Below, one piece after another: positions 15,482 to 55,228 of a DNA stretch of 64,000 nt (its first letter is position 1; every line of letters begins with the position of its first letter). The stretch comes from an uncultured Elusimicrobia bacterium (lineage in GTDB: Bacteria; Elusimicrobiota; Elusimicrobia; Elusimicrobiales; UBA9959). Location of the stretch: the NCBI GenBank assembly GCA_903879915.1, contig CAIRNJ010000013.1, forward strand, positions 833 to 64,832. The letters are read 5' to 3'. The notes beneath the pieces are model-generated. The model saw only the letters and a list, made by a program, of their open reading frames with translations, did not search any database and was not told the DNA's origin. Made by a program: the position numbers and the translations under genes.

Positions 15482-15610
15482 TTGTTCCTCCGTAAAGATT
15501 CTGAGCGTGCTTACATTCTATTTAAAGCGAAAGGCCTTGTAAAACGTTTTCATAAGGACCCGCCGAAAATAAAATATAATGACGGTACTGTGAAGATCCG
15601 TCAGAAAACC

Positions 15611-16558
15611 ATGCCGGTCCCCGGCGAGGCGGCCAAAAACGCGGCGCGCGGCGCGCCCGGGATCGTTTTCCTGGGCTCGGCCTGCAATTACGACTGCCTG
15701 TTCTGTTCGGGAGGGCCCGACGACAAGACCCAGACCGCGGCCGAGATCCGCGCCGTCATCGCGGCGCGGCCCGATACGCTTTCCATCGAGGGCGGCGAAC
15801 CGACCCTGGACCGCGGGCTGCCGGAGTGGGTGCGGCTGGCCCGCAAGACCGGCGTGCGCGACATCATCCTGTGCACCAACGGCGCGCGCTTCGGGAACGC
15901 CGCCTATGTGCGCGAGCTCTGCGGGGCCGGGGTGACGCTCTTCAACGTGAACTTCCCGTCGCACATCGAGAAGGTTTTCGGCGCGATCACGCGCACGAGC
16001 GGGGTGTTCCCCCGGTGCCTCAGGGCGCTGCGCGTCCTGATCGACACGGCCGGAGGCCCCCGGGTGCGGCTTAACTGCGTGGTGCACCTCCTCAGCGCGC
16101 CGGTACTCGAGGATTACGTGCGTTTCGTGCGCAGGAACTTCCCCGAGGTCTTCTACATCGAGTTCAACCTGGTCAAGGTGCTGGGCCATGTGAAGCGCCG
16201 CCGGTACCTGGTGCCGCGCCTCGGCTATATCCTCCCCCGGCTTTCCGCCGCGCTGGCGCTCGCGGACCGTTTCAAAATGCAGTGCATCTGCGACGGTTTC
16301 CCGCTCTGTCTCCTGCCGGGGCACGAGCATTGCGCCATCGACGCCCGCAAGCTGCTTACCGGGGACCTGCTCTATATGAAGGAGAAAATAAAATCGCCCC
16401 GCTGCGCGGGCTGCACGCTGGGCGCGCTGTGCGCGGGCCTGCGCGCGGACTACCTGCGCATCCATGGCGACGGCGAGATCAGGGCGTCCTCCCTCGACCC
16501 CGCGCCCATAGAGGCGCGCGTGAGGAAATTTCTTGCCGGGCCGCAGGGTCCGCGCTGA
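15611..16558 (+). CDS. radical SAM protein, short HxsC-like paralogue family ('fam1')
   Basis: 315 aa from ATG 15611 (GTG 15590 also possible; the 5' 1.2 kb of the 729-aa track ORF is antisense to ygeY); CNYDCLFC; SIEGGEPT; C-terminal CAGCTLGALCAGLRADYLRIHGDGEI tail. Confidence 0.7.
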   Translation: MPVPGEAAKNAARGAPGIVFLGSACNYDCLFCSGGPDDKTQTAAEIRAVIAARPDTLSIEGGEPTLDRGLPEWVRLARKTGVRDIILCTNGARFGNAAYVRELCGAGVTLFNVNFPSHIEKVFGAITRTSGVFPRCLRALRVLIDTAGGPRVRLNCVVHLLSAPVLEDYVRFVRRNFPEVFYIEFNLVKVLGHVKRRRYLVPRLGYILPRLSAALALADRFKMQCICDGFPLCLLPGHEHCAIDARKLLTGDLLYMKEKIKSPRCAGCTLGALCAGLRADYLRIHGDGEIRASSLDPAPIEARVRKFLAGPQGPR

Positions 16559-16595
16559 CGGCCCGGAGTTAAGCCGGTATCAGGATCAACGGCCC

Positions 16596-17537
16596 ATGTC
16601 TTTCCTAAAACTTAAAAAACCGCTCAACGGCCTCAAAGAGCTCAGGGACTTCGACCCGGGCCTCTCCGATCTTGCCGCCCTGCTCATCGGGGCGAAGCCG
16701 GTGCTTTACACGGACTTTTCCGCCGCCGGCTGGCCCTACATAAAGGAGCTGTGCGGGGCGCTTAAGCTCAGGTATCTCCTGCCTGAAGCCGTTTACGGGC
16801 GGGCGGGCTTCAAGGCCGCGCCGAAGTCCGGGAAACGGATGCTGCTCATAGGCAAGACCCCAAAAGTCCTGAAGGAAGCCGCGGAAAGCTGGAACCGTTC
16901 CCCCACCGACCCGGCCTGGGGCCGCCTGCTCGGCTACCCTGACTGCTGCGTTAAGGCCTACATAGACTGGCGCGCGGTGGCGCACAAGACCGACCTAGTC
17001 AATTTCACCTTTGCCAGGACCGTCAAAAAGGAGCGGCTGCACTTCGGGCTGAACAACGTTTTTAACTATTTCTCGCGGTTGACCGGCGAACCGGCCGACA
17101 TGGCGGATTTCGCGCGCATAAGGGCGGCCAACAAGGACCTGGGTATTTCCACTTTGCAGGTGATAAGCTGGCACCCCTGCGCCTATGATTGCGGGCGCAG
17201 CGTAAAACTTGCCGGCGAGATCTTCGCTTTCCTGCTCGAGCACCTGCCGGAGCGCGCGGCGGAGCTGAAAAGCCGCCTGGCAAAGCCGGTGCTTTTCAGG
17301 GATAAATACGAATACCTTCTCCTGAACGGACGGGAGAAGAACTCTAAAGTCTATTATTTAGGCATCGCCAGGCCTGAAGGCCTGCTGCCGGAAGAGATAA
17401 AGCGCAGGATAGCGGCCGGGAACGTCCTTTGCGCCGGGAAAGGCCGCGTCGCCGTGTTCAGCGGCGCCAGGCCGCTTTATGAAATAACCTCCGCCAAACC
17501 TTTTTCGCTGCTTAATTTCACGGCGGCTCAAAAATAA
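16596..17537 (+). CDS. hypothetical Cys-motif protein co-transcribed with rSAM 15611
   Basis: 313 aa from ATG 16596; conserved-looking motifs LLGYPDCCVKAY and WHPCAYDCGRS (possible metal site); no family confidently recognised. Confidence 0.5.
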   Translation: MSFLKLKKPLNGLKELRDFDPGLSDLAALLIGAKPVLYTDFSAAGWPYIKELCGALKLRYLLPEAVYGRAGFKAAPKSGKRMLLIGKTPKVLKEAAESWNRSPTDPAWGRLLGYPDCCVKAYIDWRAVAHKTDLVNFTFARTVKKERLHFGLNNVFNYFSRLTGEPADMADFARIRAANKDLGISTLQVISWHPCAYDCGRSVKLAGEIFAFLLEHLPERAAELKSRLAKPVLFRDKYEYLLLNGREKNSKVYYLGIARPEGLLPEEIKRRIAAGNVLCAGKGRVAVFSGARPLYEITSAKPFSLLNFTAAQK

Positions 17538-17547: not shown

Positions 17548-18249
17548 TCAGCAGCCGCGCGCCTTCAGGCAGCGGGGAGTGAAGACGAGCCGTTCGACCG
17601 CCTTATGCGGGCAGGGCGCGTTGCCCCTGAAGTAAGCGTTAGCGCGAAGGACAAGGCTCTCCCCCCCGGGGCGGGTCAGCCCGGCCTGGACGCCGGCGCA
17701 GCCGCGCCCGCAAGCCGCGGACAGTTCCCCGGTATGCGCGCAGAGCCGGCTCATGGCCAGGTATTCCAGCGGGTAATGGAAGGAAATTTTAAGCGGCGAC
17801 GAGGCGGGCAGGTTACCCACCATGCCCGCCTCGTCGCTTTCGAGCAGTTTTATCCCGTACTCCCTGAAGAACTTTTTCAGGAATTCCGGGGACATGCGCA
17901 GGAAATCATGCGACACCGGCCTGCCCAGCAGAGGAACGGCCCGACCGCGGAAACGCCGCCGCAGCGCCGCCAGCAGGCCCAGGTCGTTGACCGACACTTC
18001 CACCTCTTTTTCCGTCTCGAGCACCCGCTCCAGCGTCTTGATGAATTTTTTAAGCGCCGCGCCGGTAAGCAGCGGGGTGGCCAGGGTCAGCGCGCGCGCG
18101 CCCGCCGCGCGCAGGCGGCGCACGTCGTCCGCGGCCGGCAGCAGGTTCTGGCAGAAGGAGCTGCCGATATAGACCCGGCCGTAGCAGCGGAGAAACCCCG
18201 GCTTGATCAGCAGCGCCTCGGGCGGGGTAAGGGAGACGGCCAGTTCCAT
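17548..18249 (-). CDS. peptidase-U32-family small paralogue (UbiV-like)
   Basis: 233 aa; start overlaps upstream stop (TGATG); TIM-barrel-like N-terminus (RVYIGSSFCQNLLP...ALTLATPLL) and Cys cluster CAHTGELSAACGRGCAG. Confidence 0.5.
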   Translation of the reverse strand: MELAVSLTPPEALLIKPGFLRCYGRVYIGSSFCQNLLPAADDVRRLRAAGARALTLATPLLTGAALKKFIKTLERVLETEKEVEVSVNDLGLLAALRRRFRGRAVPLLGRPVSHDFLRMSPEFLKKFFREYGIKLLESDEAGMVGNLPASSPLKISFHYPLEYLAMSRLCAHTGELSAACGRGCAGVQAGLTRPGGESLVLRANAYFRGNAPCPHKAVERLVFTPRCLKARGC

Positions 18250-19148
18250 CAGAATCCCTCCTTCAGGCGCAGGTACGCTCTGTCCATGGCGGTCCTTACC
18301 CGCAAAGCCTCGGCGGTGAAGCGTTCGCGCGAAAGCCCCGCGGCCAGCAGGCCCGCGAGGAGGCGTCCTTCGGCGAAGATCACGCGGGAGATCTCGGCCA
18401 CGGGAGAACGCCCCACTTTCAGGGTGCCGACGCCCAGGCGGTGATAATCGTGCAGCTGCGCCAGGTGCTCGGCCGGCGAGAACGCCGGCATGACGAAGCC
18501 GCGCCCGCGCAGGAGGAATTTCTTCTTGCAGGTGTTGGAATCTTTACCGCGGCATTCCAGGAAACACAGCCCGTTAAAGTTGCGGCAGCATTCCCTGGCC
18601 TTCAAAAAAACCTCCGTGCCTATGCCCCAGCGGTTGCGCACCAGTTCGGCGGCCTCGGCCGGCAGCAGCTGCTCCGGCAGGGCGAGGCGCGTCACGCCGT
18701 AGCGGCGGTAAAAGCCCAGCGCGGCGGCGTTGAGGCAGCAGGAAAGCGTGCTCAGTATCAGCGGGGTCCTTATGCGGCGCCGCCGGAGCAGGTCCATCAG
18801 CGCGAGGTCCCTGATTATCACGCCGTCTATGCCGCCGCCGGCCAGCTCCGCTATCACCCCGGCCGTCCTTTCCAGCAGGGCCGCGTGGACCTCGTTGGCG
18901 GCAAAGAACATTTTCGCCCCGGCGGCGCGGGCCAGCGCCGCGGCTTTCAGTATCTCGCCGGTCGAAGCGAAATTCCTGGCGCCTTCGACATGGCTCGGGA
19001 TATATTCAAGGCCGCAATAAAGCTCCGCCGCGCCTTCGCGGAGGTAATATTCGAGATCGCGGAAGGAGCCTATTCCCACCTGCAGGTTCATCGGCGCGGG
19101 TTCCGCGCCCCGCGTTCCGGTCGTCCTCCGGTTTGTTGTTCCCGTCAT
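18249..19148 (-). CDS. peptidase U32 family protein (UbiU/RlhA/TrhP-like)
   Basis: 299 aa (ATG 19091 is an alternative start); U32-like N-terminus (AAELYCGLEYIPSHVEGARNF...AGAKMFFAANEV) and Cys cluster CCRNFNGLCFLECRGKDSNTC. Confidence 0.6.
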   Translation of the reverse strand: MTGTTNRRTTGTRGAEPAPMNLQVGIGSFRDLEYYLREGAAELYCGLEYIPSHVEGARNFASTGEILKAAALARAAGAKMFFAANEVHAALLERTAGVIAELAGGGIDGVIIRDLALMDLLRRRRIRTPLILSTLSCCLNAAALGFYRRYGVTRLALPEQLLPAEAAELVRNRWGIGTEVFLKARECCRNFNGLCFLECRGKDSNTCKKKFLLRGRGFVMPAFSPAEHLAQLHDYHRLGVGTLKVGRSPVAEISRVIFAEGRLLAGLLAAGLSRERFTAEALRVRTAMDRAYLRLKEGF

Positions 19149-19163: not shown

Positions 19164-20357
19164 TCAAAGCCATTTTTCTATCTCGGCGTACGGCCTGGAC
19201 AGGGACCAGTAATAGGTCCCGCGCGAAAAGCGGCTCTTTACAAAGCCCTTCTGCGTAAGCCGGGCGGCGGAATTCATCACGGCGTTGCCGTCCGAGCAGT
19301 CCCGGCAGAGCACTATTTTTTTCGACAGCCGCAGCGCCTCCCTGGTCGACGCTTCTTTTTTCAGCCGCAGTATCTCCACCAGGCAGCGCTCGTTGTCCGA
19401 AAGGAAAACCCTGCCGGCGGCCGGAGTATCCCCGGGCCTGCCCGGCGCCTTGACCGGAGCAAACCCGTTCCAGCCGAAAAGTTTCACGTAATTCCGGTCC
19501 GCCCCGCGGCATTTCCCGGCCAGGGCGCAGCGGCGGCAGGGCGGGCCTTTCACCTTGGCCGCGTCGGCGCCGGCGTCCAGGTCGGTGCGCTTCCCGTCGG
19601 GGTCGGTGACCACGGTGTTGAAGGCGTCGAGCCCTATGGCCAGGTTCTCGCGGCCGCTTATGAAGCAGGGCGGGGTGTTCAGGAAAAGTATCTCGCCCGG
19701 CAGGCCCGCTGCCTCCATGGTCCTGACCGCCCTGAGGAAATGCGGGGCGCATTGCGGCAGGCTGACGCCCAGCTTCCCGGCGTTAGCGGCCATGGACCCC
19801 ATATACACGGGATAAATTATGACGAAGTTGGTTATGCCGCGTTCCAGGAAGAATTTTATTATCTCCGGCAGGCGCCTGTAGTTCCGGCGGTTCACCAGGA
19901 TATTGGTGCCGACGCGTATCTTAAGGCGGCGGAGGTGCTCGAGCCCGGCCAGCGCCTTTTTGAAGGCCCCCGGCGCCCCCGTCAGCGCGTCGTGGTCTTT
20001 TTCCCTGTCGGTGGTGAAGGAGAATTTGCAGAAAGTGAGCCCGGCCTTGACCAGGCCGGCGCAGAACGCGGCGTCGGCCAGTTCTATCCCGTTGGTCTGC
20101 ACACGGATAAAATCGAAACCCACCGACTTGCCCAGCGCTATGACCTTGAGTATGTCCGGACGTATAAGCGGCTCCCCGCCGGTCAGGCCCAGTCGGCCGT
20201 AGCCGGCCTTGCGGGCGGCGTAGATATTGCGCGCTATGGCGGCGAACGGGGCGTTGCGCGACTTGTCGAAGCCGCCCTGCGAGCAGAAAAGGCAGCGCGC
20301 GTTGCAGTTATAGTTGAGTATCAGCTCGAAGCATTTTTCGCCGGCGGTCTTTTTCAT
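19164..20357 (-). CDS. radical SAM protein (fam1) with extra C-terminal winged-helix-like domain
   Basis: 397 aa from ATG 20357 (ATGA overlap with upstream stop); CNARCLFC; LTGGEPL; fam1 tail CRRCALAGKCRGADRNYVKLFGWNGFAPVK. A further ~80 aa follows (ERCLVEILRLKKEASTREALRLS...ARLTQKGFVKS), which looks like a wHTH. Confidence 0.7.
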   Translation of the reverse strand: MKKTAGEKCFELILNYNCNARCLFCSQGGFDKSRNAPFAAIARNIYAARKAGYGRLGLTGGEPLIRPDILKVIALGKSVGFDFIRVQTNGIELADAAFCAGLVKAGLTFCKFSFTTDREKDHDALTGAPGAFKKALAGLEHLRRLKIRVGTNILVNRRNYRRLPEIIKFFLERGITNFVIIYPVYMGSMAANAGKLGVSLPQCAPHFLRAVRTMEAAGLPGEILFLNTPPCFISGRENLAIGLDAFNTVVTDPDGKRTDLDAGADAAKVKGPPCRRCALAGKCRGADRNYVKLFGWNGFAPVKAPGRPGDTPAAGRVFLSDNERCLVEILRLKKEASTREALRLSKKIVLCRDCSDGNAVMNSAARLTQKGFVKSRFSRGTYYWSLSRPYAEIEKWL

Positions 20358-21367
20358 ATCACCCCGTGGAGGCGCCGGAATACGGGGCTTGAAAGCCCTG
20401 CTTCGGCCGCGGCCTTCAGCCAGCGCGCGGCTATCTTCCCGGCCGCGGCCTGCCCGGCGGGGACCGGGCCGCCGGCCGGCCTGAACCGCGCCGCCGCCCA
20501 GGGCGCGGCCGGGCACGCGGACTGCGAGGAACTTATGCCGCCGCGCGCGGCCAGCCTGAAGAATTTTTCACGGCCCTTTCCGTCCGCCCCCGCGCGGAAA
20601 GGGCGCAGCATGGCGGCCGGGCCGGAGAGCATCTTATCGCAGGGATAAAAATAGCCGTCGGGCGCCAGCGTCAGGTTGCGGCAGGGCCCCGGCCGGGCGC
20701 CGCCGGAGGCCGCGGCTATCGCTTCGTAGCCGTTGGCGAGTTCCCACAGGCCGCGCCCGCTCCTGAGCCGGACCAGGTACTCCAGCAGCAGGGCTTTCGA
20801 CGAGGCCCGGAGGCGGGCCAGAGCGGCCCCGTCCCAGGCGGCGGTAATGTCCGGGGACCAGGCCACCCGCCCGAAACCCAGGCCGAGCAGGCAAAGGACG
20901 GCGGCGGCAAGTTCCCCCGCGCCGGCCGGGGTAGCCACCACGGCGGCGCTGACCCTTTTGCGCAGGGCGCGCGGGATATTGGCCGCGCCGGTCCGCGCGC
21001 GCCCGGGCACGCCGGGACCGGCCGGACCGAAGCTCACCGTCAGTTTAACCCCGCGCTTAAGGAGTTTTTGCGCCTCCCCTTTTTTCAGCAGGAGGCCGTT
21101 AGTGAAGAGCTGCACGGGCGCGCCGGGGCCGAAAAGTTCTTCTATCCGGGCCAGCGCCGCGTACGCGAGGTCCCTGCAAAGCAGCGGCTCGCCGCCGAGT
21201 ATGGTGAACCGGGGGGCGGCGGGGCGGGCGGCGGCGAAAGCGCCCAGAGCGGCGAAGAGGGCGGCCCTGGAGATGGTGCGCCTGGAGACGCCGGCGGCGT
21301 AGCAGCAGGGACAGGACAGGTTGCAGCGCCCGCTCAGGTAAATTACCAGATGGTCAGGTTTTAGCAT
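20354..21367 (-). CDS. radical SAM protein, anSME-like with partial SPASM/twitch element ('fam2')
   Basis: 337 aa from ATG 21367; CNLSCPCC; ILGGEPL; CRNLTLAPDGYFYPC auxiliary-cluster-like motif. Confidence 0.65.
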   Translation of the reverse strand: MLKPDHLVIYLSGRCNLSCPCCYAAGVSRRTISRAALFAALGAFAAARPAAPRFTILGGEPLLCRDLAYAALARIEELFGPGAPVQLFTNGLLLKKGEAQKLLKRGVKLTVSFGPAGPGVPGRARTGAANIPRALRKRVSAAVVATPAGAGELAAAVLCLLGLGFGRVAWSPDITAAWDGAALARLRASSKALLLEYLVRLRSGRGLWELANGYEAIAAASGGARPGPCRNLTLAPDGYFYPCDKMLSGPAAMLRPFRAGADGKGREKFFRLAARGGISSSQSACPAAPWAAARFRPAGGPVPAGQAAAGKIAARWLKAAAEAGLSSPVFRRLHGVI

Positions 21368-22320
21368 GGTCTTATCCGCGCCGCGGCCGCTGGCTTTTTT
21401 ACGGGTTTGAGCTCGCTGTCGCCGTAATTCTTCAGATACTCCACCCAGATGCCTTCGCACTGGTCATAAAGCAGGCAGCCGCGGCAGCGGGCGGTTTTCC
21501 TGCGGCCCACGGCGGCGCGCGACCCGATGGCGTCGGTGTTGATGAAATCCGGGGCCCAGTGCTCGGTCAGGAAAAGCGTCCGCTCGTTCGTCTCGCTTAT
21601 CTGGTCCAGGCAGTCCCTGAAATGGCAGAGCGGCACGTACCTGGCCTTCCACTGGTCCATGCCGGCGCGCCGCCCGAAGGCCAGCGCGCGCCGCATGAAC
21701 GGCGCGGCTTTTGAAATGCGCGGCACCAGGGCGCTGAAATTCCTCTTCGCGCCGCCGTAATTGGGGTCCACGAAGATATACTCCACGTTGCGCACGCCGC
21801 TGGCGGCGTAGAACCGCGCGAGCTCCGGCAGCGCGGCCAGATTCTGTTTTACCACGGTGGTATTGCCGCTGATCTTTTCGAACCCGAGCGCTTTCAGGTT
21901 TTTCAGCCCTTTCACCAGCTGGGCGAAGCTGCCCGGCACGCGCGTGAGCGCGTCATGCACGCGCGCGCCCGGGCCGTGCACCGAGAAGATCAGCGAATCT
22001 ATGCCGGAAGCGACTATTCGTTTCGCCGCCGCCATGTCGGCGAAGACGCGGCCGTTGGTGGCGCAGGCCACCTCGGCGATGCCGAGTTTTTTAGCGGCCG
22101 CCACCACGCGGCTGAAATCGGGGCGTATGGTGGCCTCGCCGCCTATTATCTCCAGGATGTCGGCGCCCTTGCTCCCGGCCCGCATTATCCCGGCCAGCAG
22201 CTCCGCCGTGCTTTTCTGCGGCAGGCCGCGCTTATCCTCGTCTATGCAGAAGGCGCAGTTGTTGTTGCAGGCGTAGCCGGTGAAGAGGACTATCTTAAGT
22301 TTTTTCCCGTTCTTTTTCAT
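21361..22320 (-). CDS. radical SAM protein (fam1)
   Basis: 319 aa from ATG 22320 (ATGA overlap); CNNNCAFC; IIGGEAT; SVHG; tail CRGCLLYDQCEGIWVEYLKNYGDSELKPVK. Confidence 0.7.
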   Translation of the reverse strand: MKKNGKKLKIVLFTGYACNNNCAFCIDEDKRGLPQKSTAELLAGIMRAGSKGADILEIIGGEATIRPDFSRVVAAAKKLGIAEVACATNGRVFADMAAAKRIVASGIDSLIFSVHGPGARVHDALTRVPGSFAQLVKGLKNLKALGFEKISGNTTVVKQNLAALPELARFYAASGVRNVEYIFVDPNYGGAKRNFSALVPRISKAAPFMRRALAFGRRAGMDQWKARYVPLCHFRDCLDQISETNERTLFLTEHWAPDFINTDAIGSRAAVGRRKTARCRGCLLYDQCEGIWVEYLKNYGDSELKPVKKPAAAARIRPC

Positions 22321-45767: not shown

Positions 45768-46502
45768 ATGCCTGAACTCGCGGTAATTATCCCGGCCTAC
45801 AACTCCGAAGCCGTACTGCCCGGCACCCTGGCGCGCCTGGCCGCCGTGCGGTCCGCCCTGCCCGGCGCGGCGGTGCTGCTGGTGGACGACGGCAGCACGG
45901 ACGGGACTGCCGCGGCCGCGCGCCGCGCCGCCCAGAAACTGGGCCTGGAGCTCCGCGTGCTGCCCCACCCGGGCAACCGGGGCTACGGCGCGGCCCAGAA
46001 GACCGGGCTGCGCGCCGCGCTGGACCTCGGCTGCCGCGCCGCCGTGCTGCTGCACGCCGACGGCCAGTACGCCCCGGAAGAGCTGCCGGTCATGGTCCGC
46101 CCGCTGCTTGACGGCTCGGCCGACGTGGCCGCCGGCTCCCGGCTCGCGTCGGGCAAAGCCCTGGCGCAGGGCATGCCCCTTGCCAGGTATCTGGCGAACC
46201 GCTGGCTGACGGCGCTAGAGAACGCCGTGTTCGGGCTGAACTTCTTCGAGTACCACTCGGGCTACATGGCCTACTCGGCCGGAGCGCTGCGCGCGATAAA
46301 ATTCGAAACGCTGACGGACAGGTTCCATTTCGACGGGGAAATGCTGCTCTGCGCCGGCAAGCTCGGGCTGCGCGTGGCCCAGCTGCCCGTCTCCGCCCAC
46401 TACGGTCCCGAATCGTCCAGCCTGGCCCCGCTGCCTTACCTGGCCGAGATAGCCGGCGTGCTGCTGCGGTACCTGCGCCGCGGCTACTTCTTCCAGCGCT
46501 AG
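45768..46502 (+). CDS. family 2 glycosyltransferase (polyprenyl-phosphate glycosyltransferase-like)
   Basis: 244 aa from ATG 45768; IIPAYNSE; LLVDDGSTDGT; GNRGYGAAQKTG; LHADGQY. Confidence 0.7.
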   Translation: MPELAVIIPAYNSEAVLPGTLARLAAVRSALPGAAVLLVDDGSTDGTAAAARRAAQKLGLELRVLPHPGNRGYGAAQKTGLRAALDLGCRAAVLLHADGQYAPEELPVMVRPLLDGSADVAAGSRLASGKALAQGMPLARYLANRWLTALENAVFGLNFFEYHSGYMAYSAGALRAIKFETLTDRFHFDGEMLLCAGKLGLRVAQLPVSAHYGPESSSLAPLPYLAEIAGVLLRYLRRGYFFQR

Positions 46503-47965: not shown

Positions 47966-48906
47966 GAGCCCGCCCCGGCGGGGACCGTAAAGCCGGGCAG
48001 CACGAGGGAATTTAAAACGGAAGCCCCGGCCGGAACGCGCCCGCCCGGGAAGACCACCGTGCGCACGAGGCGCGCCCCGGCGCCGGCCGAACCGCCGCGG
48101 GCCACCACGGAACCTTCCAGTTCAACTCCCGCCCCGACCTCGGCCTCCGGGTGCGCGAAACCGGACAGCCCTTTGTCCTCCAGCCAGGCCGCGTTGGCCG
48201 TCAGTATATCTTCCGGGTAGGTGATATTCACGTCCAGTTTGAGCGTTTCCATGGCCTTGACCGTGCCGCCGCCGGCGATAAGCCCCTGTATGGCGTCCGT
48301 AAGCTCTATCTCCCCGCGCAGCGCCGACGGGCGGGTCCGCCCGAGCGCCGCCATGAACCTGGGGCCGAAAAAATATACGCCGCAGGGTTTGACCAGGCTG
48401 AGCGCGCGCGCCGGCTTTTCCACTATCCGGAGCACCGTATCCGCGGCGTCCAGCTCTATCGTGCATTCTTTAAGTATCGCGGCCTCGTCCGCGACCTTCC
48501 TCACGGAGAGCACGGCGTCGGGTCCGCCGCCGCTTATCGCCCGTACCGCGCCGGCCAGGTCCGGCCGGGAGTAATAAGTGTCGCCCAGCACCAGCGCGAA
48601 AGGCCCGCCTTTCACCCAGGGCCCGGCCAGCAGCGCGGCGTGCCCTATGCCCCTGCGTTCGGCCTGGTGGACGACCGCGAGCTCCGCTCCGGAGCCTTCG
48701 AGGGCCCTCCTGGCGGCGCTCTCGACCTCTCCCGACGAAGGGTCGGTCACTATAACGAAAAGTTTCGTCCCGAGGGCTATAAAGACGCGCAGGTGGAGTT
48801 CCAGCAGCGGGCAGTCCCCGACGGGGAGCAGCGCTTTCGGGAAGAGCTTGCCGATTTCGCCGAGCCGCGTGCCGCTGCCGGCGGTCAGGATAACGACCGG
48901 GATCAT
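47962..48906 (-). CDS. sugar-phosphate nucleotidyltransferase with C-terminal left-handed beta-helix
   Basis: 314 aa; MIPVVILTAGSGTRLG...KALLPV signature; C-terminal hexapeptide-like repeats. Confidence 0.7.
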   Translation of the reverse strand: MIPVVILTAGSGTRLGEIGKLFPKALLPVGDCPLLELHLRVFIALGTKLFVIVTDPSSGEVESAARRALEGSGAELAVVHQAERRGIGHAALLAGPWVKGGPFALVLGDTYYSRPDLAGAVRAISGGGPDAVLSVRKVADEAAILKECTIELDAADTVLRIVEKPARALSLVKPCGVYFFGPRFMAALGRTRPSALRGEIELTDAIQGLIAGGGTVKAMETLKLDVNITYPEDILTANAAWLEDKGLSGFAHPEAEVGAGVELEGSVVARGGSAGAGARLVRTVVFPGGRVPAGASVLNSLVLPGFTVPAGAGS

Positions 48907-50264
48907 GAGAGTGTTTTTTCGGCCGCCGAAATGCCGGCCTCTATGCTGTGGTCCATGTTATAAATGGCCCATTCCCCGAAACGCCCGGCGGATATTATGC
49001 CGGCCTCCTCCAGGCGGCGCAGGCAGAACGGCACGTCCTCCCCGTGCCCGGCGTGCGGCACCGGGTATGCCGGGAAATGGTCATAAGCCCGCAGCGTCTT
49101 TATGTCCTTCTTTCTTATGACGCCGAGCTTTACGAGGCCGGCCGTGACGCGCGGGGCCAGGCCCGCCGCGGCGCGGTTCGCCCCGCCCGGGGGCAGGGCG
49201 CATTCCACCAGCAGCGCATGGCCGCCCGGCGCGGCGCCCGGGTTTATCAGGTCCGCGCGGGTGAGGCGGTAGAAAGGCGCGGCCGGGTCCGGCACGTAGA
49301 TCCAGTGATACGGCGGCAGGTTCACCCCGGACAGCACGTATTGCAGGCAGAGCACCCTCGTAGCGCGCAGGCGGGAGGCGGGCCCGGAACATTCCTTAAG
49401 GCCGGCCAGCCGTACGGCCCGGTCCAGCGGCAGCGTGGAGATCAGGCGGCCGTAGCCCACCTCGCCGCGCGACGTGAGAACGGTCTTGCGCCGCGCGTCT
49501 ATTTTCAGCACTTCGGCGCCGCAGACCGGCGCCGCGGGTTTCAGGCTCCCGAGCAGTCCCTCCACCAGCGACTCTATGCCGCCGCGCTTCGGGTAAACGA
49601 ATTCGGCGTGCGGGGCCGCGTCCCCGCGGCCGGCCCGCCGGCCGCCGAGTATGCTGTCGGCCAGGCCGGCGGCTCCGGGCAGGCGTATTTTAGCGGCCAG
49701 CCATTTATGGTCCATGCCGGCCAGCGGCGTCTGCCAGAGCTTCTCGTTGTAAGGCCGGAAGAACAGGTCCGTTATGCCGCCGCCCAGCTCCCGGACGGCC
49801 AGCTCCTCGAGGTTGCGCGGCCCGGCCGGGACGCTTTTAAAACGCGCTTCCAGCAAACCGCGCAGCGCCGTTTTCCTGTCTTCAAGGCCCAGCTGGTGTA
49901 TATTGTCCTGGAAAGGGAAATCCACGTAGCCGCCCTTCCACATTACGCCGAGGCGGTGCCTGTAGCTGTAAACCGGGCCGGCCATTTCCCTGAAGATGGC
50001 GGCGGCGCGTTTATTCCTGGTGAAAAAAACGTGGGGCAGTTCGTCGATCGTCACGCCGGCCGAGCGGTCGGTCTTAAGCAGGCCGCCGGGACGGGGACCG
50101 CGCTCCAGCAGCAGTACGTCCCGCGCTCCGGAGCGCAGCAGTTCCCTGGCCGCTATAAGCCCGGTCAGTCCGGCGCCCAGTATTACGACCTCGGCGCTGT
50201 CAGGCAGGCCGCCGGAACGGTTGATTTTTCGCTTTCTCCCCGTCATTTTAAATAATGTTAGCAA
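48903..50264 (-). CDS. FAD/NAD(P)-binding oxidoreductase (amine-oxidase / UDP-galactopyranose-mutase-like fold)
   Basis: 453 aa; dinucleotide-binding motif VVILGAGLTGLIAARELL...LLLERGPRPGG. Confidence 0.6.
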   Translation of the reverse strand: MLTLFKMTGRKRKINRSGGLPDSAEVVILGAGLTGLIAARELLRSGARDVLLLERGPRPGGLLKTDRSAGVTIDELPHVFFTRNKRAAAIFREMAGPVYSYRHRLGVMWKGGYVDFPFQDNIHQLGLEDRKTALRGLLEARFKSVPAGPRNLEELAVRELGGGITDLFFRPYNEKLWQTPLAGMDHKWLAAKIRLPGAAGLADSILGGRRAGRGDAAPHAEFVYPKRGGIESLVEGLLGSLKPAAPVCGAEVLKIDARRKTVLTSRGEVGYGRLISTLPLDRAVRLAGLKECSGPASRLRATRVLCLQYVLSGVNLPPYHWIYVPDPAAPFYRLTRADLINPGAAPGGHALLVECALPPGGANRAAAGLAPRVTAGLVKLGVIRKKDIKTLRAYDHFPAYPVPHAGHGEDVPFCLRRLEEAGIISAGRFGEWAIYNMDHSIEAGISAAEKTLS

Positions 50265-50450: not shown

Positions 50451-51596
50451 CTACCGGCGTTTCTCCGCCGGCAGGTCCGGATTTTCAAACCCCATCCCCT
50501 CTTCGCGCAGCGCGCGGACGATGTCGGCGCTGCTTTTCAGCAGCGGCTTAAGGCCGCCGCGCTCAAGAAGGTCCTTGTAATAGATACAAAGCAGGCAGGC
50601 GAGGAAAACGCGCTGCCCGCAGGCCATTACGGCCTTGAAAGCCCGCTCCCTCGAAGCGCGTACTTTTTGCAGGTCGAGCCCGGAGCGCCAGTCGCCCACG
50701 GCGTAAACGGCCCGCAGGGCGGGGTCCTGGGCCGCGCGGGAGGCCGAAAGTATGGAGCACGGGTAGAACACCCCGTCGGGGCCTATGGAGACCTCGCCCT
50801 GGGCGCAAAAAGAGTCAAGCCAGGCGCGGCCTTTTTCCAGGCGCTTGTAGCCGAATTTAGGGACCTCCAGGAAGGCGCCGCGGCCGGCGCCCTTGAGATA
50901 GAGCGCCGTCTTGCGCAGCTCACGCCGCAACGCCGCCAGGTCGCGAGCGCTCCACGCCTCCTGCACCGCGAAGGAAAGGCCGAGGTCGCCGGCGCCGAGC
51001 GAAGCCAGGAACCGGACGTTCTCGGCCAGGCGCGGGGCCGTGGTTTTGGTGACCGTGGCGGAAATGCCCAGGGCTTTCCTGGCCTCGGCGGGCAAAGCCC
51101 GGATGTTGCTTATTACCCGCCTGAAACTGGGCCTGCCGCCGCGCATAACCCTGTTCAGGTTCTGGCTGAGGGGCGCGCCGTCCAGGCTGATCTTAAGATG
51201 TACGGCGCTGCGCCTGAAAAGCTCCGCGGTGGGCGCGTCCAGCAGCAGGCCGTTCGAGAAGCACTCGATATCCACCGCCGGGCCCGCCGTCTTCCTGAGC
51301 CAGGGCAGCAGGCCGGCCAGCAGTTTTTTATCCAGCAGCGGCTCGCCGCCGGAAATACTTATCTTCTCCACTTTGCCGCCGCGGGCGGCGCGCAGGTAAT
51401 GCAGCACCGCCAGCTTTATCCGGCGCAGGTCCAGTTTTTGCACGCGGGCGCGGTCGAGATCGCCGGAATAGCAATAGCGGCAGCGCATGTTGCACTGGTT
51501 GGAAACGCAGATATCAAGCTCCGCCGGGAACGCCGGCAGGCGGCCCTGGGCCGCCTGCGCGGGACCGGCTACGGATCTGTGGGCTGGAAATGGCAT
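50451..51596 (-). CDS. radical SAM protein, anSME-like (fam2), last gene of the Hxs-type operon
   Basis: 381 aa; CNMRCRYC; ISGGEPLL; CAQGEVSIGPDGVFYPC partial SPASM. Confidence 0.7.
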   Translation of the reverse strand: MPFPAHRSVAGPAQAAQGRLPAFPAELDICVSNQCNMRCRYCYSGDLDRARVQKLDLRRIKLAVLHYLRAARGGKVEKISISGGEPLLDKKLLAGLLPWLRKTAGPAVDIECFSNGLLLDAPTAELFRRSAVHLKISLDGAPLSQNLNRVMRGGRPSFRRVISNIRALPAEARKALGISATVTKTTAPRLAENVRFLASLGAGDLGLSFAVQEAWSARDLAALRRELRKTALYLKGAGRGAFLEVPKFGYKRLEKGRAWLDSFCAQGEVSIGPDGVFYPCSILSASRAAQDPALRAVYAVGDWRSGLDLQKVRASRERAFKAVMACGQRVFLACLLCIYYKDLLERGGLKPLLKSSADIVRALREEGMGFENPDLPAEKRR

Positions 51597-51691
51597 CTTT
51601 AGGCGCTGACGTACGCGGAGCTTACCGCCGCCGGCGCGCCCGCGAAACCGCGGGCGCTGCGGGCGAACCCGTGAAACCGCTCAACTCCGCG

Positions 51692-51982
51692 CTAACACCA
51701 GCCGCCCCGGGAGTGCGAGCCGTGGCTGCCGTGGGAACCGTGCGAGGCGTGAGAGCCGTGGGAACCGTGGGAACCGTGGCTCAGGTGGCTGGTGTGGCTC
51801 GTCTCGTTGAAGGCGTTCGTGTGGAACGAGATCGCCGCCGCGTTAGCCTGGTCCGCCATGGCGGCCCCGATGATTCCAAGGGCGAGGCCGGTTTTCACTA
51901 TATCCGCGTCCAGCATCTTTCCCTCTTCGCTGTTGAGAAAGAGTCTTATGTTCTTGCCTGTCCGTGGTTCTTTCTTTTTCAT
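51692..51982 (-). CDS. hxsA: His-Xaa-Ser repeat peptide (HxsA-like candidate precursor)
   Basis: 96 aa; strong SD (GAAGGAG, 6-nt spacer); basic N-terminus, hydrophobic segment TGLALGIIGAAMA, C-terminal SHTSHLSHGSHGSHGSHASHGSHGSHGSHSRGGWC; flanked by HxsB/HxsD-like genes. Confidence 0.6.
   Translation of the reverse strand: MKKKEPRTGKNIRLFLNSEEGKMLDADIVKTGLALGIIGAAMADQANAAAISFHTNAFNETSHTSHLSHGSHGSHGSHASHGSHGSHGSHSRGGWC
51710..51799 (-). repeat. 10 x 9-nt imperfect tandem repeat (gtg-gNN-NNc on the plus strand) encoding the S-H-x repeat
   Basis: His codons (gtg on plus strand) at 51713, 51722, 51731 ... 51794, exactly 9 nt apart. Confidence 0.85.
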
Positions 51983-51993: not shown

Positions 51994-53022
51994 TCAGTTT
52001 TTTTTGAGAATTTCCCTGACCTTTTTATTGGTCTCGTCTATGGACGTTCTCTCCGCCCTGGACAAGTGGTTGGAGAGGCTCTGGCAATAAGCCTCGCCCA
52101 GCTTTTCAAGGACGCCCGCACAGCCCGCCGGGGATTTCGAGAAGAACGCGCTGCACTCGCCCGCGTACGCTTTCGGACAGGCGGCCCTGTTGCCGTCCTG
52201 GAGGGCGCTGTAAAGCTGAAAATTCTCGACGCATTCCGGATTTTTGCAATCGTCACGGCTGCTGGGGAAGGCCATGCGGCACCTGGCCTTGCTGCTTCCC
52301 GCCTTATCGCAGACCCAGGCGAAACCCTTCGCGGCCTCGCGGCAGAACTCGGGCGGAACGGAGGCGCCGGACACGTTATCCCCGGCCAGGTATTTCCGGC
52401 AGGGCTGTTCGCTTTTATACTTGCCGGCGGCGTAGGCGAAGAACAGCACCCTGGTGGAGGGACCCACGCACTGGTAATTCGGGGAATGGAAATAATTCTC
52501 TTTGCCGCTCTGCGCCCCGGGCAGGAAATTGCACATATCAGGATTGTCGGCGGCCACGGCCTGGCAGGAGAAATACTTCGCCAGCAGGGCGTAAACCGCG
52601 TCGTTCTCGTTCTTATAAAAAGCTTCCGGCCCGGAAGCGGAATAGCCCCAGAGCCTCCCGTGGGAGGACAGGATATCGTTGAGCGACTTGCCGTCGCGGC
52701 AGACCGGGGCGTTCGCGAAATTACTCAGGATGGAGGGCATGGGTCCCTTGCCGGCCATGACCGCCGGGGGAGTGAACCCGCCCTGCATCAAAGGCCGCAC
52801 GAACTGCGCGGGTTCCGCGCCGGAGGCCGCGGGCTGCGCGGACACAGCGGAGTAAGAGGCCGCATCGGCCGGCAGCGGCACCCCGCCCGGCTGGGCCGGC
52901 GCGGCCTGGCCCGGCATAGTCCGGTCCGGCCCGGACGGCGCCGCGTTCTTCCTCTGCATATACTGAAGGAAAAGCAGCACCGCGAGAAGCCCCACTACCG
53001 ATATAATAACTGGCTTTTTCAT
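51994..53022 (-). CDS. Cys-rich membrane-anchored/exported protein
   Basis: 342 aa from ATG 53022 (ATGA overlap with hxsD-like stop); N-terminal TM KKPVIISVVGLLAVLLFL; about 15 Cys in the C-terminal 230 aa. Confidence 0.5.
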   Translation of the reverse strand: MKKPVIISVVGLLAVLLFLQYMQRKNAAPSGPDRTMPGQAAPAQPGGVPLPADAASYSAVSAQPAASGAEPAQFVRPLMQGGFTPPAVMAGKGPMPSILSNFANAPVCRDGKSLNDILSSHGRLWGYSASGPEAFYKNENDAVYALLAKYFSCQAVAADNPDMCNFLPGAQSGKENYFHSPNYQCVGPSTRVLFFAYAAGKYKSEQPCRKYLAGDNVSGASVPPEFCREAAKGFAWVCDKAGSSKARCRMAFPSSRDDCKNPECVENFQLYSALQDGNRAACPKAYAGECSAFFSKSPAGCAGVLEKLGEAYCQSLSNHLSRAERTSIDETNKKVREILKKN

Positions 53023-53336
53023 TGTCCCCTCCCGTTCTTCGCCTGTGTTCTTTCGCCGCAAGCCGACAGCAGCGCCCTGGTGACTATCATACCGGCCAGC
53101 CTGGAATTCTTTTTGGCCAGGTCTATCCTGCACTGCTGGTTCAAAGCCTCGTTGGCCAGTTCCCCGGCCAGGCGCCCGTCCGCGTCCCCGTTCAGCAGCA
53201 CCCGCGTGACCGCCCTGCCCGGCAGCACTTTTACGCGGCATTTCCCGGAGAAAACATAAGCCGCCAGCTCCACGGCTTCCCTCGAATAGACCGCGGCCTC
53301 AAAAACGAGCTCCCTGCCGCTTTTACGCTCTTTCAT
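53019..53336 (-). CDS. hxsD: HxsD-like small protein
   Basis: 105 aa; ELANEALNQQCRIDL resembles the LLNDYxLRE signature I recall for HxsD (TIGR03976); start overlaps HxsB-like stop by 14 nt. Confidence 0.45.
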   Translation of the reverse strand: MKERKSGRELVFEAAVYSREAVELAAYVFSGKCRVKVLPGRAVTRVLLNGDADGRLAGELANEALNQQCRIDLAKKNSRLAGMIVTRALLSACGERTQAKNGRGQ

Positions 53337-54792
53337 TTGTCCTCACCCATTTTTCAAGAATTTCCCTGTCTCCGGCTTTCCTTAGCTTCGAGAAGAGCGT
53401 CCCGAAAACGCCCTTGAAAAGCCTGCACCTGTCGTTCGACCGCATGTTTCCCCAGAGCGAGCCCTGCGACTCGTAGTTATACACCGGGCAGACCCCGCAG
53501 TAGGGCTTATAGGCGCAGCGGGCGCAGTCCGGCTGCGCCTCTAGGTTCGAGGACAGCGAGCAGGCCCTGGCGGCCGGGCTTGAAAGGGCCTGCTTGAAGG
53601 TACTGGTGAAGACGTTGCCCATGCGGAAAATATCGTCGCCTTCCCAGCCCACCATGCGCCCCTCGTCGCAGGTGTAAAGGTCGCCGTTATAGTTATAAGC
53701 TATCTGGCCTATGGCCGCGCCGCAGGGGCCGCGCGCGTCCAGGTAGCCGGGCTCCCGGAAATCAAGGATCTTTTCCAGCATCATGGCCGCCATCTTCTCG
53801 CGTATGACAACGCCGCGGCGGTTCAGCGCTATTATGTAGTCAAGGCACTTCGCGTAAAAATCGGAGAACTCGGCCGGGGTAAAGCCTATCTTTTCCCAGA
53901 GGGTTTTGGCGTAGCCTATGGGGGAGAGCGGCCGTATAAAGATGTCCCCGAAGCCGAGCGCCGCGTACTCGTCGATGATCTCCTTGTGCCTGGAAAGGGA
54001 ATAGCGCGAAACGGTGAGCAGGGCGCTGGGCTTGAAAACGCGGTATTCGGGGACCTGGACCGCGTATCTCTTCCTGAAATATTTTATCCACCTCACCGCG
54101 CCGGCGTGGGAATTGCCGGCGGAGTACACGCGGTTCCTGTTGTGCAGGTCCGCCGGACCGTCCAGCGAGGTGCACAGAGAGACCTCGTTCTCAAGAAGGA
54201 ACCGCGCCTTCTCTTCCGTCATCAGCGTAAAATTGGAGACCAGCGCCAGCTTTAGTTCCTTTTTCGCGGCCGCGGCTTTTTTGCGCGCGTACTTCGTAAC
54301 GGCCTTGAGGACCTCCCAGTTAAGCAGCGGCTCTCCGCCCTGGAACTCTATGGTTATGGCCGGGTTGGGAGAGCTGAAGGCGAAATCCACGCTCCTGAGC
54401 GCGGTCTTAAGCGGCATGTCGGTCTTTTTTGCGCCAACGCCGGCGGCGCTGGACTGGCAGTAAAGGCATTTATGGTTGCACCTGAGCGTGAGGACCAGAA
54501 TGTGCAGCCCGGGGCCCTGGTCGAGGTGCCCGTTGCGGGTCCGCCACTTCGCGGCGAGCCCGTCCAGGTCCATGCGGTCGCGCACGAACCCGCCGGCGGC
54601 GAGGTCCGCGAACAGCGGGTCGCTCTTCGCCAGCCGGCCGCCTATCACGCGCCCGAAATCTTTCTCTTTCAGCCAGGCGTGGCAGCCGGCCTCGTTGGTC
54701 AGCAGGCGGCCGCCTGTCGTCCTTTCCCAGAGCGCCTGCGGCGCGGGCGAGACGGACCTATTTATTTTTTTTCGCGCTTGTTTTGCCGCCAT
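53323..54792 (-). CDS. hxsB: HxsB-like radical SAM/SPASM maturase
   Basis: 489 aa; N-terminal extension; LTLRCNHKCLYC; EFQGGEPLLN; CARCAYKPYCGVCPVYNY; next to His-Xaa-Ser peptide and HxsD-like genes. Confidence 0.7.
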   Translation of the reverse strand: MAAKQARKKINRSVSPAPQALWERTTGGRLLTNEAGCHAWLKEKDFGRVIGGRLAKSDPLFADLAAGGFVRDRMDLDGLAAKWRTRNGHLDQGPGLHILVLTLRCNHKCLYCQSSAAGVGAKKTDMPLKTALRSVDFAFSSPNPAITIEFQGGEPLLNWEVLKAVTKYARKKAAAAKKELKLALVSNFTLMTEEKARFLLENEVSLCTSLDGPADLHNRNRVYSAGNSHAGAVRWIKYFRKRYAVQVPEYRVFKPSALLTVSRYSLSRHKEIIDEYAALGFGDIFIRPLSPIGYAKTLWEKIGFTPAEFSDFYAKCLDYIIALNRRGVVIREKMAAMMLEKILDFREPGYLDARGPCGAAIGQIAYNYNGDLYTCDEGRMVGWEGDDIFRMGNVFTSTFKQALSSPAARACSLSSNLEAQPDCARCAYKPYCGVCPVYNYESQGSLWGNMRSNDRCRLFKGVFGTLFSKLRKAGDREILEKWVRTNERA

Positions 54793-55228
54793 ACGTGTCT
54801 TCCCAGGTCCTGGTTATTCCCAAAGGGTCTTCCTGCCGCCCGTTCAGCGCGTCCTTCTTTATTTCTCCCTCGACCTGCGCGATAAGCTCTTCAAGCTCTT
54901 TTTCCTGCTCGGCGGTAAGGCCCGGGTCCGCGGCGGCCTCCGGTTTCTTCGCCGGGGAAAGCGCCTTCATCACCAGGAATTCGCGCAGTTCCCTGTTATT
55001 GTCGGCGACGGCCTCCCGCAGCTTCTCGTCGGCGAGCTCGGACAGGAACCGGGCCCTGAGCCCGGCAGGCGGCTTGCCGTCCCTTGCGGACAGCTCCACC
55101 GCCATGCCGGTTTTTCCGGCACCCCGCACCATAACGAAAGCCGCGCCGCTGACCGCGTAGGCCGCGTAGCGCACGGCGTCGGCGCTGTACTTCTTCAGAT
55201 CCACTTTTACGATGATCGTCTTAGTCAA
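54758..55228 (-). CDS. HxsD-like protein with acidic C-terminal extension
   Basis: 156 aa; FLSELADEKLRE matches the LLNDYxLRE-type motif; about 60-aa charged tail (EQEKELEELIAQVEGEIKKD...). Confidence 0.45.
   Translation of the reverse strand: MTKTIIVKVDLKKYSADAVRYAAYAVSGAAFVMVRGAGKTGMAVELSARDGKPPAGLRARFLSELADEKLREAVADNNRELREFLVMKALSPAKKPEAAADPGLTAEQEKELEELIAQVEGEIKKDALNGRQEDPLGITRTWEDTYGGKTSAKKNK

Follow-up and report, generated by a model that had tools for sequence, protein, structure and literature searches.

An expanded, composite HXS-type locus rich in radical-SAM enzymes in an uncultured Elusimicrobia bacterium

This study concerns an island of radical S-adenosylmethionine (radical-SAM) genes in an uncultured Elusimicrobia bacterium, an island whose backbone is of the HXS type and whose candidate substrate is a peptide with His-Xaa-Ser (HxS) repeats. 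The window, by which we mean the whole stretch of DNA that was analysed, comprises 64,000 nucleotides of contig CAIRNJ010000013.1 (assembly GCA_903879915.1). Genes were called from third-position guanine-plus-cytosine (GC) content, and start codons were refined with the gene calls on near-identical public contigs. The interval 15590 to 55228 holds about 36 genes, and 20 of them encode proteins with a CxxxCxxC motif. All 20 open reading frames (ORFs) scored between 30.9 and 79.5 bits against PF04055, for which the Pfam gathering threshold is 29.5, and the count of 20 given in the preliminary description therefore stands. The 20 radical-SAM genes, out of about 36, thus cover 64% of the bases; the chance of such a proportion would be about 6e-25, an illustrative figure that rests on an assumed background rate of 2%. 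The radical-SAM enzymes and the HXS genes among them are as follows, with model scores in bits.

15611 to 16558, plus strand: C1, HxsC/HxsC4-like radical-SAM enzyme (PF04055 37.5; HxsC4 74.6 and HxsC 70.3, both below cut-off; 24–29% identity to the other C proteins).
19164 to 20357, minus strand: C2, HxsC-like radical-SAM enzyme extended at its C-terminus (PF04055 63.4; HxsC4 92.7; HxsC 85.4).
20354 to 21367, minus strand: S1, PapB/SPASM-type radical-SAM enzyme (PF04055 37.7; best NCBIfam match PapB, 36.9; motif PDGYFYPC).
21361 to 22323, minus strand: C3, HxsC4-like radical-SAM enzyme, the most conserved C member (PF04055 68.8; HxsC4 148, cut-off 500).
22317 to 23468, minus strand: A24-like (TadV/FlaK-type) polytopic aspartic peptidase with a C-terminal extension (PF01478 20.5, under the threshold of 26.5; profile positions 2–103 of 104).
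23465 to 24358, minus strand: C4, the nearest counterpart of canonical HxsC (TIGR03977 150.9, cut-off 267.9; model positions 33–290 of 292).
24362 to 25801, minus strand: B1, second copy of HxsB, a SPASM maturase (TIGR03978 442.7, cut-off 370; 49% identity to B3).
26639 to 28072, 28072 to 29508, 29505 to 30923, 30944 to 32503, 32500 to 34032 and 34029 to 35462, minus strand: M1 to M6, array of B12 radical-SAM enzymes (PF02310 and PF04055 above gathering).
41564 to 42694 (C6), 40491 to 41567 (S2), 39085 to 40488 (B2) and 38041 to 39072 (C5), minus strand: four-gene operon C6-S2-B2-C5 (PF04055 41.5–70.9).
42789 to 44138, plus strand: HemN-like (class C-type) radical-SAM enzyme (PF04055 64.1; STM4012 151, ChuW/HutW 130 and HemN 125, all below cut-off).
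50451 to 51596, minus strand: S3, PapB-like radical-SAM enzyme directly downstream of hxsA4 (PF04055 58.1; PapB 100.8, cut-off 340; motif PDGVFYPC).
51692 to 51982, minus strand: HxsA4 precursor, 96 amino acids (NF038313 63.5, cut-off 55).
51994 to 53022, minus strand: Cys-rich secreted protein of 342 amino acids, always between HxsD2 and HxsA4 (no family match).
54758 to 55228, 53323 to 54792 and 53019 to 53336, minus strand: HxsD1, B3 and HxsD2 (B3: TIGR03978 482, cut-off 370; SPASM PF13186/TIGR04085).
55277 to 55963, minus strand: x228, a protein with a signal anchor, a Cys-rich end and, N-terminally, the strongly conserved motif TLTTYYPAPYGGY...LARD (no family match).

All-vs-all BLASTP sorted the 20 enzymes into four families and one singleton: six C, three HxsB-like, three S and seven B12 enzymes and one HemN-like enzyme, exactly the split given in the preliminary description. 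Within families the identities were 23–49%, with the exception of M2 and M6 (71%). Because of these identities, recent duplication was ruled out as the origin of the paralogues, M2/M6 excepted, and we conclude that they are old and not recent copies. The HXS families and their companions account for 15 of the 36 genes: nine radical-SAM genes, two encoding HxsD-like proteins, and those for HxsA4, the A24-like peptidase, the Cys-rich protein and x228. Fifteen genes, from 35462 down to 17548, lie on a single strand with overlaps or gaps of no more than 20 nucleotides, except for one gap of 113 nucleotides, an arrangement that favours co-expression. An Rfam scan found no cobalamin or SAM riboswitch at gathering thresholds, and no tRNA was found as a possible marker of an integration site. 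Opposite C1, an ORF on the minus strand (15518 to 16465, 315 amino acids) has a low-complexity, Arg/Ala-rich translation and is a shadow ORF of a high-GC gene.

The HxsA4 precursor is the only ORF with HxS repeats in the six frames of the window, and it passes the HxsA4 model, in agreement with its first description as a single HxsA-like peptide. It consists of a leader with FLNSEEG, a hydrophobic Gly/Ala-rich helix, an HxNYF element, ten HxS repeats and an RGGWC tail. In the family alignment A1, L16, E19, G21, the last repeats and the leader core F-L-x-S-E-E-G are invariant; the number of repeats varies, and the end ...SHARGGWC is almost invariant. HxsA4 has no Pfam domain and no peptidoglycan-binding domain. 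Other peptides with an FLxxEEG leader, sought in the window and in 106 loci, were all of the HxsA4 type. A pilin-type leader, an idea prompted by the A24-like peptidase, may be entertained as a hypothesis. The Flp/prepilin reading of the leader was rejected because no pilin hidden Markov model (HMM) matched it; a likeness at the level of motifs is left (FLxxEEG and then a hydrophobic helix). Immediately past the stop codon of hxsA4 (51597 to 51691, minus strand) there is a GC-rich hairpin with a stem of 9–10 bp, a UUUC loop and no U-run, which was not significant relative to shuffled sequences (z = −1.65). Precursor genes in peptide operons are often followed by such stems.

Three HxsB-like enzymes had been reported. 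Those at 53323 and 24362 exceed the TIGR03978 cut-off, whereas B2 (39085 to 40488) reaches 304.5 bits, under the cut-off of 370, and is divergent. B2 is without two cysteines of the first part of the SPASM domain that are present in B1 and B3 (RSPCG...YTCDEG replaced by SSRNL...YGSDEG), and because of this loss it probably lacks one auxiliary cluster. The HxsD-like protein described earlier was found again, together with a second one (53019 to 53336) that had been overlooked. The pair scored 40.9 and 30 bits against TIGR03976 (cut-off 50), and precomputed PF27806 matches are on record for both, neither of them marked as weak or faint. The Cys-rich protein occupies the same position in six other loci (L010, L017, L022, L099, L101 and L103; 29–56% identity); here and below, L-numbers are the labels of comparison loci, each of which was mapped against the window proteins. 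The gene for x228 immediately precedes that for HxsD1 in all Elusimicrobia loci, also in short forms without HxsA4, and x228 could be a second substrate or a partner.

The six paralogues of 300–400 amino acids, which had been grouped by a shared tail, do carry that tail (C-x2-C-x5-C-x-G...Y...G..E(F/L)KP) in the alignment, and the family can now be named. For all six the two best NCBIfam matches are HxsC4 and HxsC, with HxsC4 first in five; none of the six passes either model (TIGR03977 267.9; NF038332 500), so by the curated models they are relatives and not members. The start of C2 was taken from a 397-amino-acid gene call on a contig of 98–99% identity, and C2 orthologues in Elusimicrobia loci are 54–84% identical. 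C3 has more than 120 Elusimicrobia homologues (63–98% identity). An AlphaFold2 model of C3 had a predicted local distance difference test (pLDDT) score of 85.8, and its top Foldseek matches were BlsE, GDGT-MAS, SkfB, MoaA and also SuiB. Because these matches are at most 18% identical, C3 has no close solved structure; the modelled fold resembles that of twitch-type enzymes, the peptide maturases SkfB and SuiB among them. C4 directly follows HxsD-HxsB-HxsD in relatives with a short locus. The block C6-S2-B2-C5 is kept in L005, L012, L013 and L016, the nearest species included.

The three S enzymes had been called anSME-like, a name that we do not retain since PapB is their nearest NCBIfam family. 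The element PDG...(Y)PC ascribed to all three is present at 20354 and 50451, whereas in S2 (40491) it is degenerate (PDGTLSLYPYP) and has lost its Cys. S1 stands between C3 and C2 in some relatives only. For the enzyme at 42789 the earlier assignment was upheld, its closest families being STM4012, ChuW and HemN. The seven class-B enzymes, six in tandem and one (M7) at 46499, likewise proved to be as described: PF02310 was passed by the seven ORFs starting at 26639, 28072, 29505, 30944, 32500, 34029 and 46499, with 35–87 bits (threshold 32.1), and the B12-binding domain is N-terminal and fused to the radical-SAM core. No B12 enzyme reached an NCBIfam equivalog cut-off, the nearest being BchE, HpnR, PhpK and ApyD.

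Comparison with relatives was based on 80 loci from species-representative genomes (query C4), ten from metagenomes (query S3) and several found by exact-protein look-up. Homologues of C3, HxsA4 and M2 came almost all from Elusimicrobia metagenome-assembled genomes (MAGs). About 17 species-level Elusimicrobia loci have the same frame at the same chromosomal site. The frame runs from bamA-ompH / phoH through x228-HxsD1-HxsB-HxsD2, a part consisting of CysRich, HxsA4, a variable middle and a further HxsB gene (HxsB'), and then C4-A24-C3-(S1)-C2, to M20-OTC. In short forms (L002 and L019 to L021) the CysRich-to-HxsB' part is missing and there are 5–8 radical-SAM genes; long forms have 8 to at least 14. 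Because the same frame holds from 5 to at least 14 radical-SAM genes in relatives, the locus is a variable hot spot, and the window is the largest version seen. The preliminary description placed the density above that of RiPP, cofactor or lipid clusters, but it is not unique: L016 packs 14 radical-SAM genes into 20.9 kb, and 12 such genes occur within 21 kb in B12-rich loci. What had been called a super-cluster is composite, and its relatives mostly have a shorter or differently filled locus. A block of HxsA4-S3-FADox-NTP-M7-GT2-memProp (the last genes are listed below) is kept in several lineages at 69–86% identity.

The window comes from metagenome assemblies, in which the same organism appears many times, and the closest other species has its B12 array on a contig other than that of its HXS locus; an assembly or binning chimera was therefore considered. 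The junctions B2-C5-...-polyferredoxin-M6 to M1-PP-loop-B1-C4 were recovered at 96–99% identity in L094 (GCA_037138235.1), L095 (GCA_005795865.1) and L096 (Logan SRR8517162), and the rest of the gene order is covered by L001, L007 to L009 and further contigs, the longest of 42 kb, with L106 spanning FADox to S2. An exact-sequence look-up with the 489-amino-acid HxsB ORF gave no match, and other window proteins did locate its contigs. Because independent assemblies give the same gene order, we conclude that the cluster is not misassembled, and we regard a chimera as hardly credible.

Outside the window lineage, HxS peptides also adjoin C-family enzymes in the Candidate Phyla Radiation (CPR) and in Myxococcota, an association that speaks for a functional link of the C-type enzymes with HxS substrates. 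HxS peptides together with multiple C-family radical-SAM genes were seen in L054, L067 and L075 (Myxococcota), L049 (Moraniibacteriota) and L030 and L042 (Elusimicrobia). The peptides outside the window lineage end in ...GSHGSW, ...GQW or ...GAW, and that of L030 has more than 25 repeats and ends in GGWCCPRC. Another locus outside Elusimicrobia, L028 (bacterium CSMAG_2764), contains ten C/S-family radical-SAM genes in 12.7 kb.

The genes interleaved with those listed above are the following.

16533 to 17537, plus strand: DUF483-like protein (PF04467 22.7, under the gathering threshold of 25).
18249 to 19148 (U32a) and 17548 to 18249 (U32b), minus strand: U32 pair (U32a: PF01136 49.3, UbiU-like 51.5; U32b: no HMM match).
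25803 to 26525, minus strand: PP-loop ATPase, Dph6 (diphthine-ammonia ligase)-like (PF01902 51.2; TIGR03679 64, cut-off 197).
35568 to 36704, plus strand: NapH-like membrane-bound polyferredoxin (several Fer4 Pfam families; NapH/MauN 48.9).
36704/36785 to 37165, plus strand: x153 (no family match).
37173 to 37751, minus strand: x192, secreted (no family match).
44121 to 45764, minus strand: memProp, polytopic membrane protein whose C-terminal domain is beta-rich and propeller-like (weak beta-propeller matches only).
45768 to 46502, plus strand: GT2 glycosyltransferase, polyprenyl-phosphate-sugar synthase-like (PF00535 89.9; best NCBIfam matches PpgS, AglJ and ArnC-like).
48903 to 50246 (FADox), 47962 to 48906 (sugar-1-phosphate nucleotidyltransferase, NTP) and 46499 to 47965 (M7, B12 radical-SAM enzyme), minus strand: sugar module, FADox being an FAD amine-oxidase/UGM-like oxidoreductase.

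Several of these had been recognized from the sequence, and the assignments held to differing extents. The PP-loop ATPase passes PF01902 and is Dph6-like, and the polyferredoxin and the glycosylation genes (GT2 and sugar-1-phosphate nucleotidyltransferase) were borne out. The U32 pair is confirmed by PF01136 for the gene at 18249, and its partner at 17548 is without an HMM match. The peptidase assignment is backed by both catalytic Asp motifs, xD...(R/K)KIxN and (A/G)GDAKF, which are invariant in 26 orthologues from three phyla, CPR and Myxococcota included, whereas the PF01478 score is below threshold; no PDB chain matched the protein by sequence. DUF483-like genes also adjoin C-family genes in the CPR loci L028 and L031, and a U32 a/b pair recurs beside C-family genes in L014, L015, L023, L024 and L031. 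By analogy with what is known of UbiU/UbiV and TrhP, we infer that the pair may act as an oxygen-independent hydroxylase. Orthologues of the PP-loop gene are directly upstream of B1 in L012 and L013 (79–88% identity), x153 and x192 are kept in L094 (93–96%), and memProp is conserved in L012 and L103 (71–79%). The idea of a GT-C fold for memProp (547 amino acids) was set aside, since its single-sequence AlphaFold2 model had a pLDDT of 41.7 and was unusable. FADox-NTP-M7 directly follows HxsA4-S3 in L099, L101 and L103 (69–86% identity).

Two observations were made outside the locus. In several relatives (L002, 3821 to 4788; L010, 5016 to 5953; L011, 4512 to 5500) a barnase-type ribonuclease/barstar pair separates phoH/bamA from the HXS locus; the window is without this pair and has x218 and GT2- and NTP-transferase-like genes at that place. 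The region 2000 to 8000 of the window has a lower GC content (51–55%, vs. about 64% elsewhere) and contains a CsgG/LpoB-like lipoprotein gene (2398 to 3588), a nucleotidyltransferase/HEPN pair (5216 to 6252) and a Y2-transposase fragment (6667 to 7341). This stretch resembles a small insert of mobile or foreign origin that has nothing to do with the radical-SAM island.

Up to 13 radical-SAM genes have been reported beside group VI nitrogenase paralogues in Elusimicrobia, with a tetrapyrrole cofactor as the proposed product (Meheust et al. 2020); the radical-SAM-rich loci mentioned in the preliminary description correspond to these. A small-molecule cofactor such as a modified tetrapyrrole was therefore considered as the product here also. 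HemN-like and BchE-like B12 enzymes are present in the window. In L050 (CAZEAE010000025.1, uncultured Elusimicrobia; 3242 to 16922) an HxsC-like radical-SAM gene, an A24-like peptidase gene and another HxsC-like radical-SAM gene are flanked on either side by a set of NifH and NifD/K paralogues, and outside Elusimicrobia L080 (bacterium JA2.bin36) combines nif-like genes with nine radical-SAM genes, seven of them HemN-like. Because L050 carries this C-A24-C triad, the window locus and the group VI Nif-like loci share a module; L050 has no HxS peptide within reach of its locus. On the other side, the absence of a NifH/NifD-like ORF, noted at the outset, was confirmed by a six-frame search of the window for the NifH P-loop, which found none, and by tblastn with the Nif-like proteins of L050 (best E-value 0.27). 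No gene for tetrapyrrole or cofactor biosynthesis was found among the ORFs scanned, and the window encodes a precursor peptide that passes a curated model, SPASM maturases of the peptide type, HxsD-like proteins and a peptidase of the leader type. The proposal of a cofactor is itself still a hypothesis, and a 2026 review continues to list the function of these paralogues as unknown (PMC13474568). We consider a cofactor product very unlikely.

The window thus contains a real, exceptionally radical-SAM-rich island with an HXS-type backbone and modular, variable contents, several of its modules being co-oriented and tightly packed. With moderate confidence we propose that HxsA4 is matured in this composite island by serial radical chemistry into an exported product of the cell envelope. 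HxsD and the N-terminal domains of HxsB would bind the HxsA4 leader, and the HxsB, HxsC-like and PapB-like enzymes would introduce cross-links or C-H functionalisation on the His/Ser repeat units and the Trp-Cys tail. The B12 enzymes might methylate the peptide or act on a nucleotide-sugar; the U32 pair could hydroxylate without oxygen; and the Dph6-like ATPase may amidate a carboxylate. The polyferredoxin would supply electrons. Removal of the leader at the membrane would fall to the A24-like peptidase, and the product would then pass to the cell envelope.

Several results weigh against this proposal. The substrates of the enzymes are predicted ones, HxsA4 as their common substrate included, and the involvement of the B12 and sugar modules in HxsA4 maturation is putative. 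The C paralogues, B2 and both HxsD-like proteins are under the curated HXS cut-offs. A Pfam scan of 28 HxsA4 members, in which E-values of up to 10 were admitted, returned neither a pilin nor an Flp family, and a PADLOC 2023 scan of ten core proteins gave only weak viperin-like (pVip-like) radical-SAM similarity, PADLOC having no HXS model. Because the short-form HxsD-HxsB-HxsD-C4-A24-C3-C2 loci have no HxS gene within 10 kb, HxsA4 is not an obligatory neighbour of these enzymes. Finally, B12 arrays elsewhere accompany sugar-modifying genes and not peptides, so that they may belong to a different pathway. In the MAG of the closest relative (JAUSCK01), orthologues of M5, M4, M3, M2 and M1 (78–84% identity) are found in the same order on a different contig, beside aconitase and a polyferredoxin, and its HXS locus passes from C5 directly to PP-loop-B1. 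Because the array orthologues sit on another contig there, we conclude that the window locus is composite.

For the same reason, real weight must be given to the alternative that two or three unrelated neighbouring pathways are present, in which the HXS genes mature the peptide while the B12 array with the polyferredoxin, and FADox-NTP-M7-GT2-memProp, build a methylated glycan, a lipid or another envelope component. The 113-nucleotide gap falls exactly at the junction of M1 and the PP-loop gene, where the array meets the ancestral operon, and so does the first of two copies of an AT-rich element, GTACAATAT. One copy is at 26592 to 26600, upstream of the PP-loop gene on the minus strand, and the other is at 35555 to 35563, upstream of the polyferredoxin gene on the plus strand; the relative orientation is the same, and both are probably promoters. 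A search of the array borders for insertion scars (shared k-mers) gave nothing convincing. A homologue of M2 (68%) occurs on GWA2_61_42 contig MGUE01000023 in a locus with 12 radical-SAM genes, a SAM methyltransferase, an acetyltransferase and an epimerase, and among the best matches of the B12 enzymes are enzymes of lipids and sugars (HpnR, a ladderane-type lipid enzyme and PhpK). Against a separation of pathways, three assemblies agree that the array immediately precedes PP-loop-B1-C4, tightly packed and on one strand with it; the sugar module stays with HxsA4-S3 in several lineages (70–86% identity); and B12 and C-family enzymes occur together in the unrelated lineages L029, L078 and L087. 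A polyferredoxin is near the array in L092. One also follows memProp in L103 and L104, which hints that a second lineage may hold the array inside its locus; the DNA fetched for it stops at the polyferredoxin. Separate pathways seem to us possible but rather doubtful, and the cofactor and chimera explanations are much less likely than this one.

The proposal of an exported HxsA4 product is compatible with a more specific role, that of an antiphage effector. The canonical four-gene HXS system defends E. coli against phage (Li et al., Nat Commun 2026; PMC13128918). There, HxsB, HxsC and HxsD mature HxsA by N-terminal processing, export and a change of +8 Da on an SHRSS motif, so the chemistry of HxS peptides can no longer be called wholly unknown, as it had been for the peptide of this locus; the matured HxsA is a periplasmic effector that blocks entry of phage DNA (PMC13128918). 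By analogy, the product here could act against phage DNA entry; a metal-binding role of a His-rich product is equally open. The same families are present (HxsA-type, HxsB, HxsD-like and HxsC-like), the contents of the locus are patchy among close relatives in the manner of defence islands, and the HxS repeats are His-rich. Less easily reconciled with a periplasmic barrier are the few basic residues of HxsA4 and its missing peptidoglycan-binding domain, the fixed chromosomal position among housekeeping envelope genes, the merely generic viperin-like similarity in PADLOC, and the distribution of the characterised type, of which 99.7% of surveyed systems are in Pseudomonadota with the order D-B-C-A (PMC13128918). 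We judge an antiphage effector to be unlikely. If the product is located in the envelope like E. coli HxsA, the antiphage principle would extend to a distant phylum.

A broader extension of the proposed HxsA4 maturation is that the 20 radical-SAM enzymes, with few exceptions or none, belong to one HxsA4 pathway which, with the U32 pair, the Dph6-like ATPase and the polyprenyl-sugar pair, makes a hyper-modified, membrane-processed envelope polymer, and that the Nif-like enzymes, whose loci contain the same triad, likewise act on something derived from a peptide and not on a tetrapyrrole. This is a speculation to which we assign a low probability. If it were true, the product of HxsA4 would be the most radical-SAM-intensive ribosomal product known. 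HXS maturation chemistry is barely known, and the locus, with nine diverged HxsB/HxsC-type, three PapB-like and seven B12 enzymes beside a simple repetitive substrate, offers a test bed for new radical chemistry at the His, Ser, Gly, Trp and Cys residues of peptides. Groundwater Elusimicrobia have at this site gained, lost and shuffled radical-SAM genes (5 to 20 per locus), which bears on how the family diversifies, and the radical-SAM-peptidase-radical-SAM triad shared with the loci of group VI nitrogenase paralogues suggests a testable alternative to the tetrapyrrole hypothesis.

Some peptide pathways combine several radical-SAM enzymes with B12-dependent C-methyltransferases; in that of polytheonamide, with PoyB and PoyC, two or three radical-SAM enzymes act iteratively. 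The window resembles such pathways in that its ribosomal peptide has a leader and a repetitive core and shares an operon with class-B radical-SAM enzymes, and differs in having 20 separate, anciently diverged enzymes. With the suites beside nitrogenase paralogues it shares the phylum, the groundwater habitat, clustered radical-SAM genes, some of them B12-fused or HemN-like, and, in L050, the C/A24 triad; unlike those suites it has no NifH/D/K-like gene, has a peptide precursor, HxsB and HxsD-like proteins, and contains 20 radical-SAM genes as against a maximum of 13 (Meheust et al. 2020).

Our searches of the library found no publication or pathway for HxsA4, HxsC4 or the Elusimicrobia locus. 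Elusimicrobiales proteins have already been named HxsA4 by NCBI, and the rare HXS variant defined in NCBIfam (HxsA4 NF038313 with HxsC4 NF038332) is matched in that the precursor passes its model and HxsC4 is the best match for five of the six C proteins; it is not matched in that the C paralogues all stay under the cut-off of HxsC4 (best 148 vs. 500). In comparison with HxsABCD of Pseudomonadota (TIGR03976 to TIGR03979), the window has three HxsB and six HxsC-like enzymes, the latter all far below the HxsC cut-off, in place of one each, two HxsD-like proteins, a 96-amino-acid HxsA4 without the peptidoglycan-binding domain, and an Elusimicrobiota host. Its gene order is D1-B3-D2-CysRich-A4 ... 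B1-C4 instead of D-B-C-A, so that the characterised E. coli type is not matched, and it has in addition the A24-like peptidase, the Cys-rich partner, the B12 enzymes, the U32 pair, the PP-loop ATPase and the sugar genes. The two have in common a protein with tandem HxS repeats, HxsB (two copies here above the equivalog cut-off) flanked by HxsD-like proteins, and a further radical-SAM enzyme of HxsC-like type, here C4, whose gene comes directly after D-B-D in relatives with a short locus; it is plausible that the product here, too, is processed at its N-terminus and exported. The locus is an expanded, composite Elusimicrobia version of the known HXS locus.

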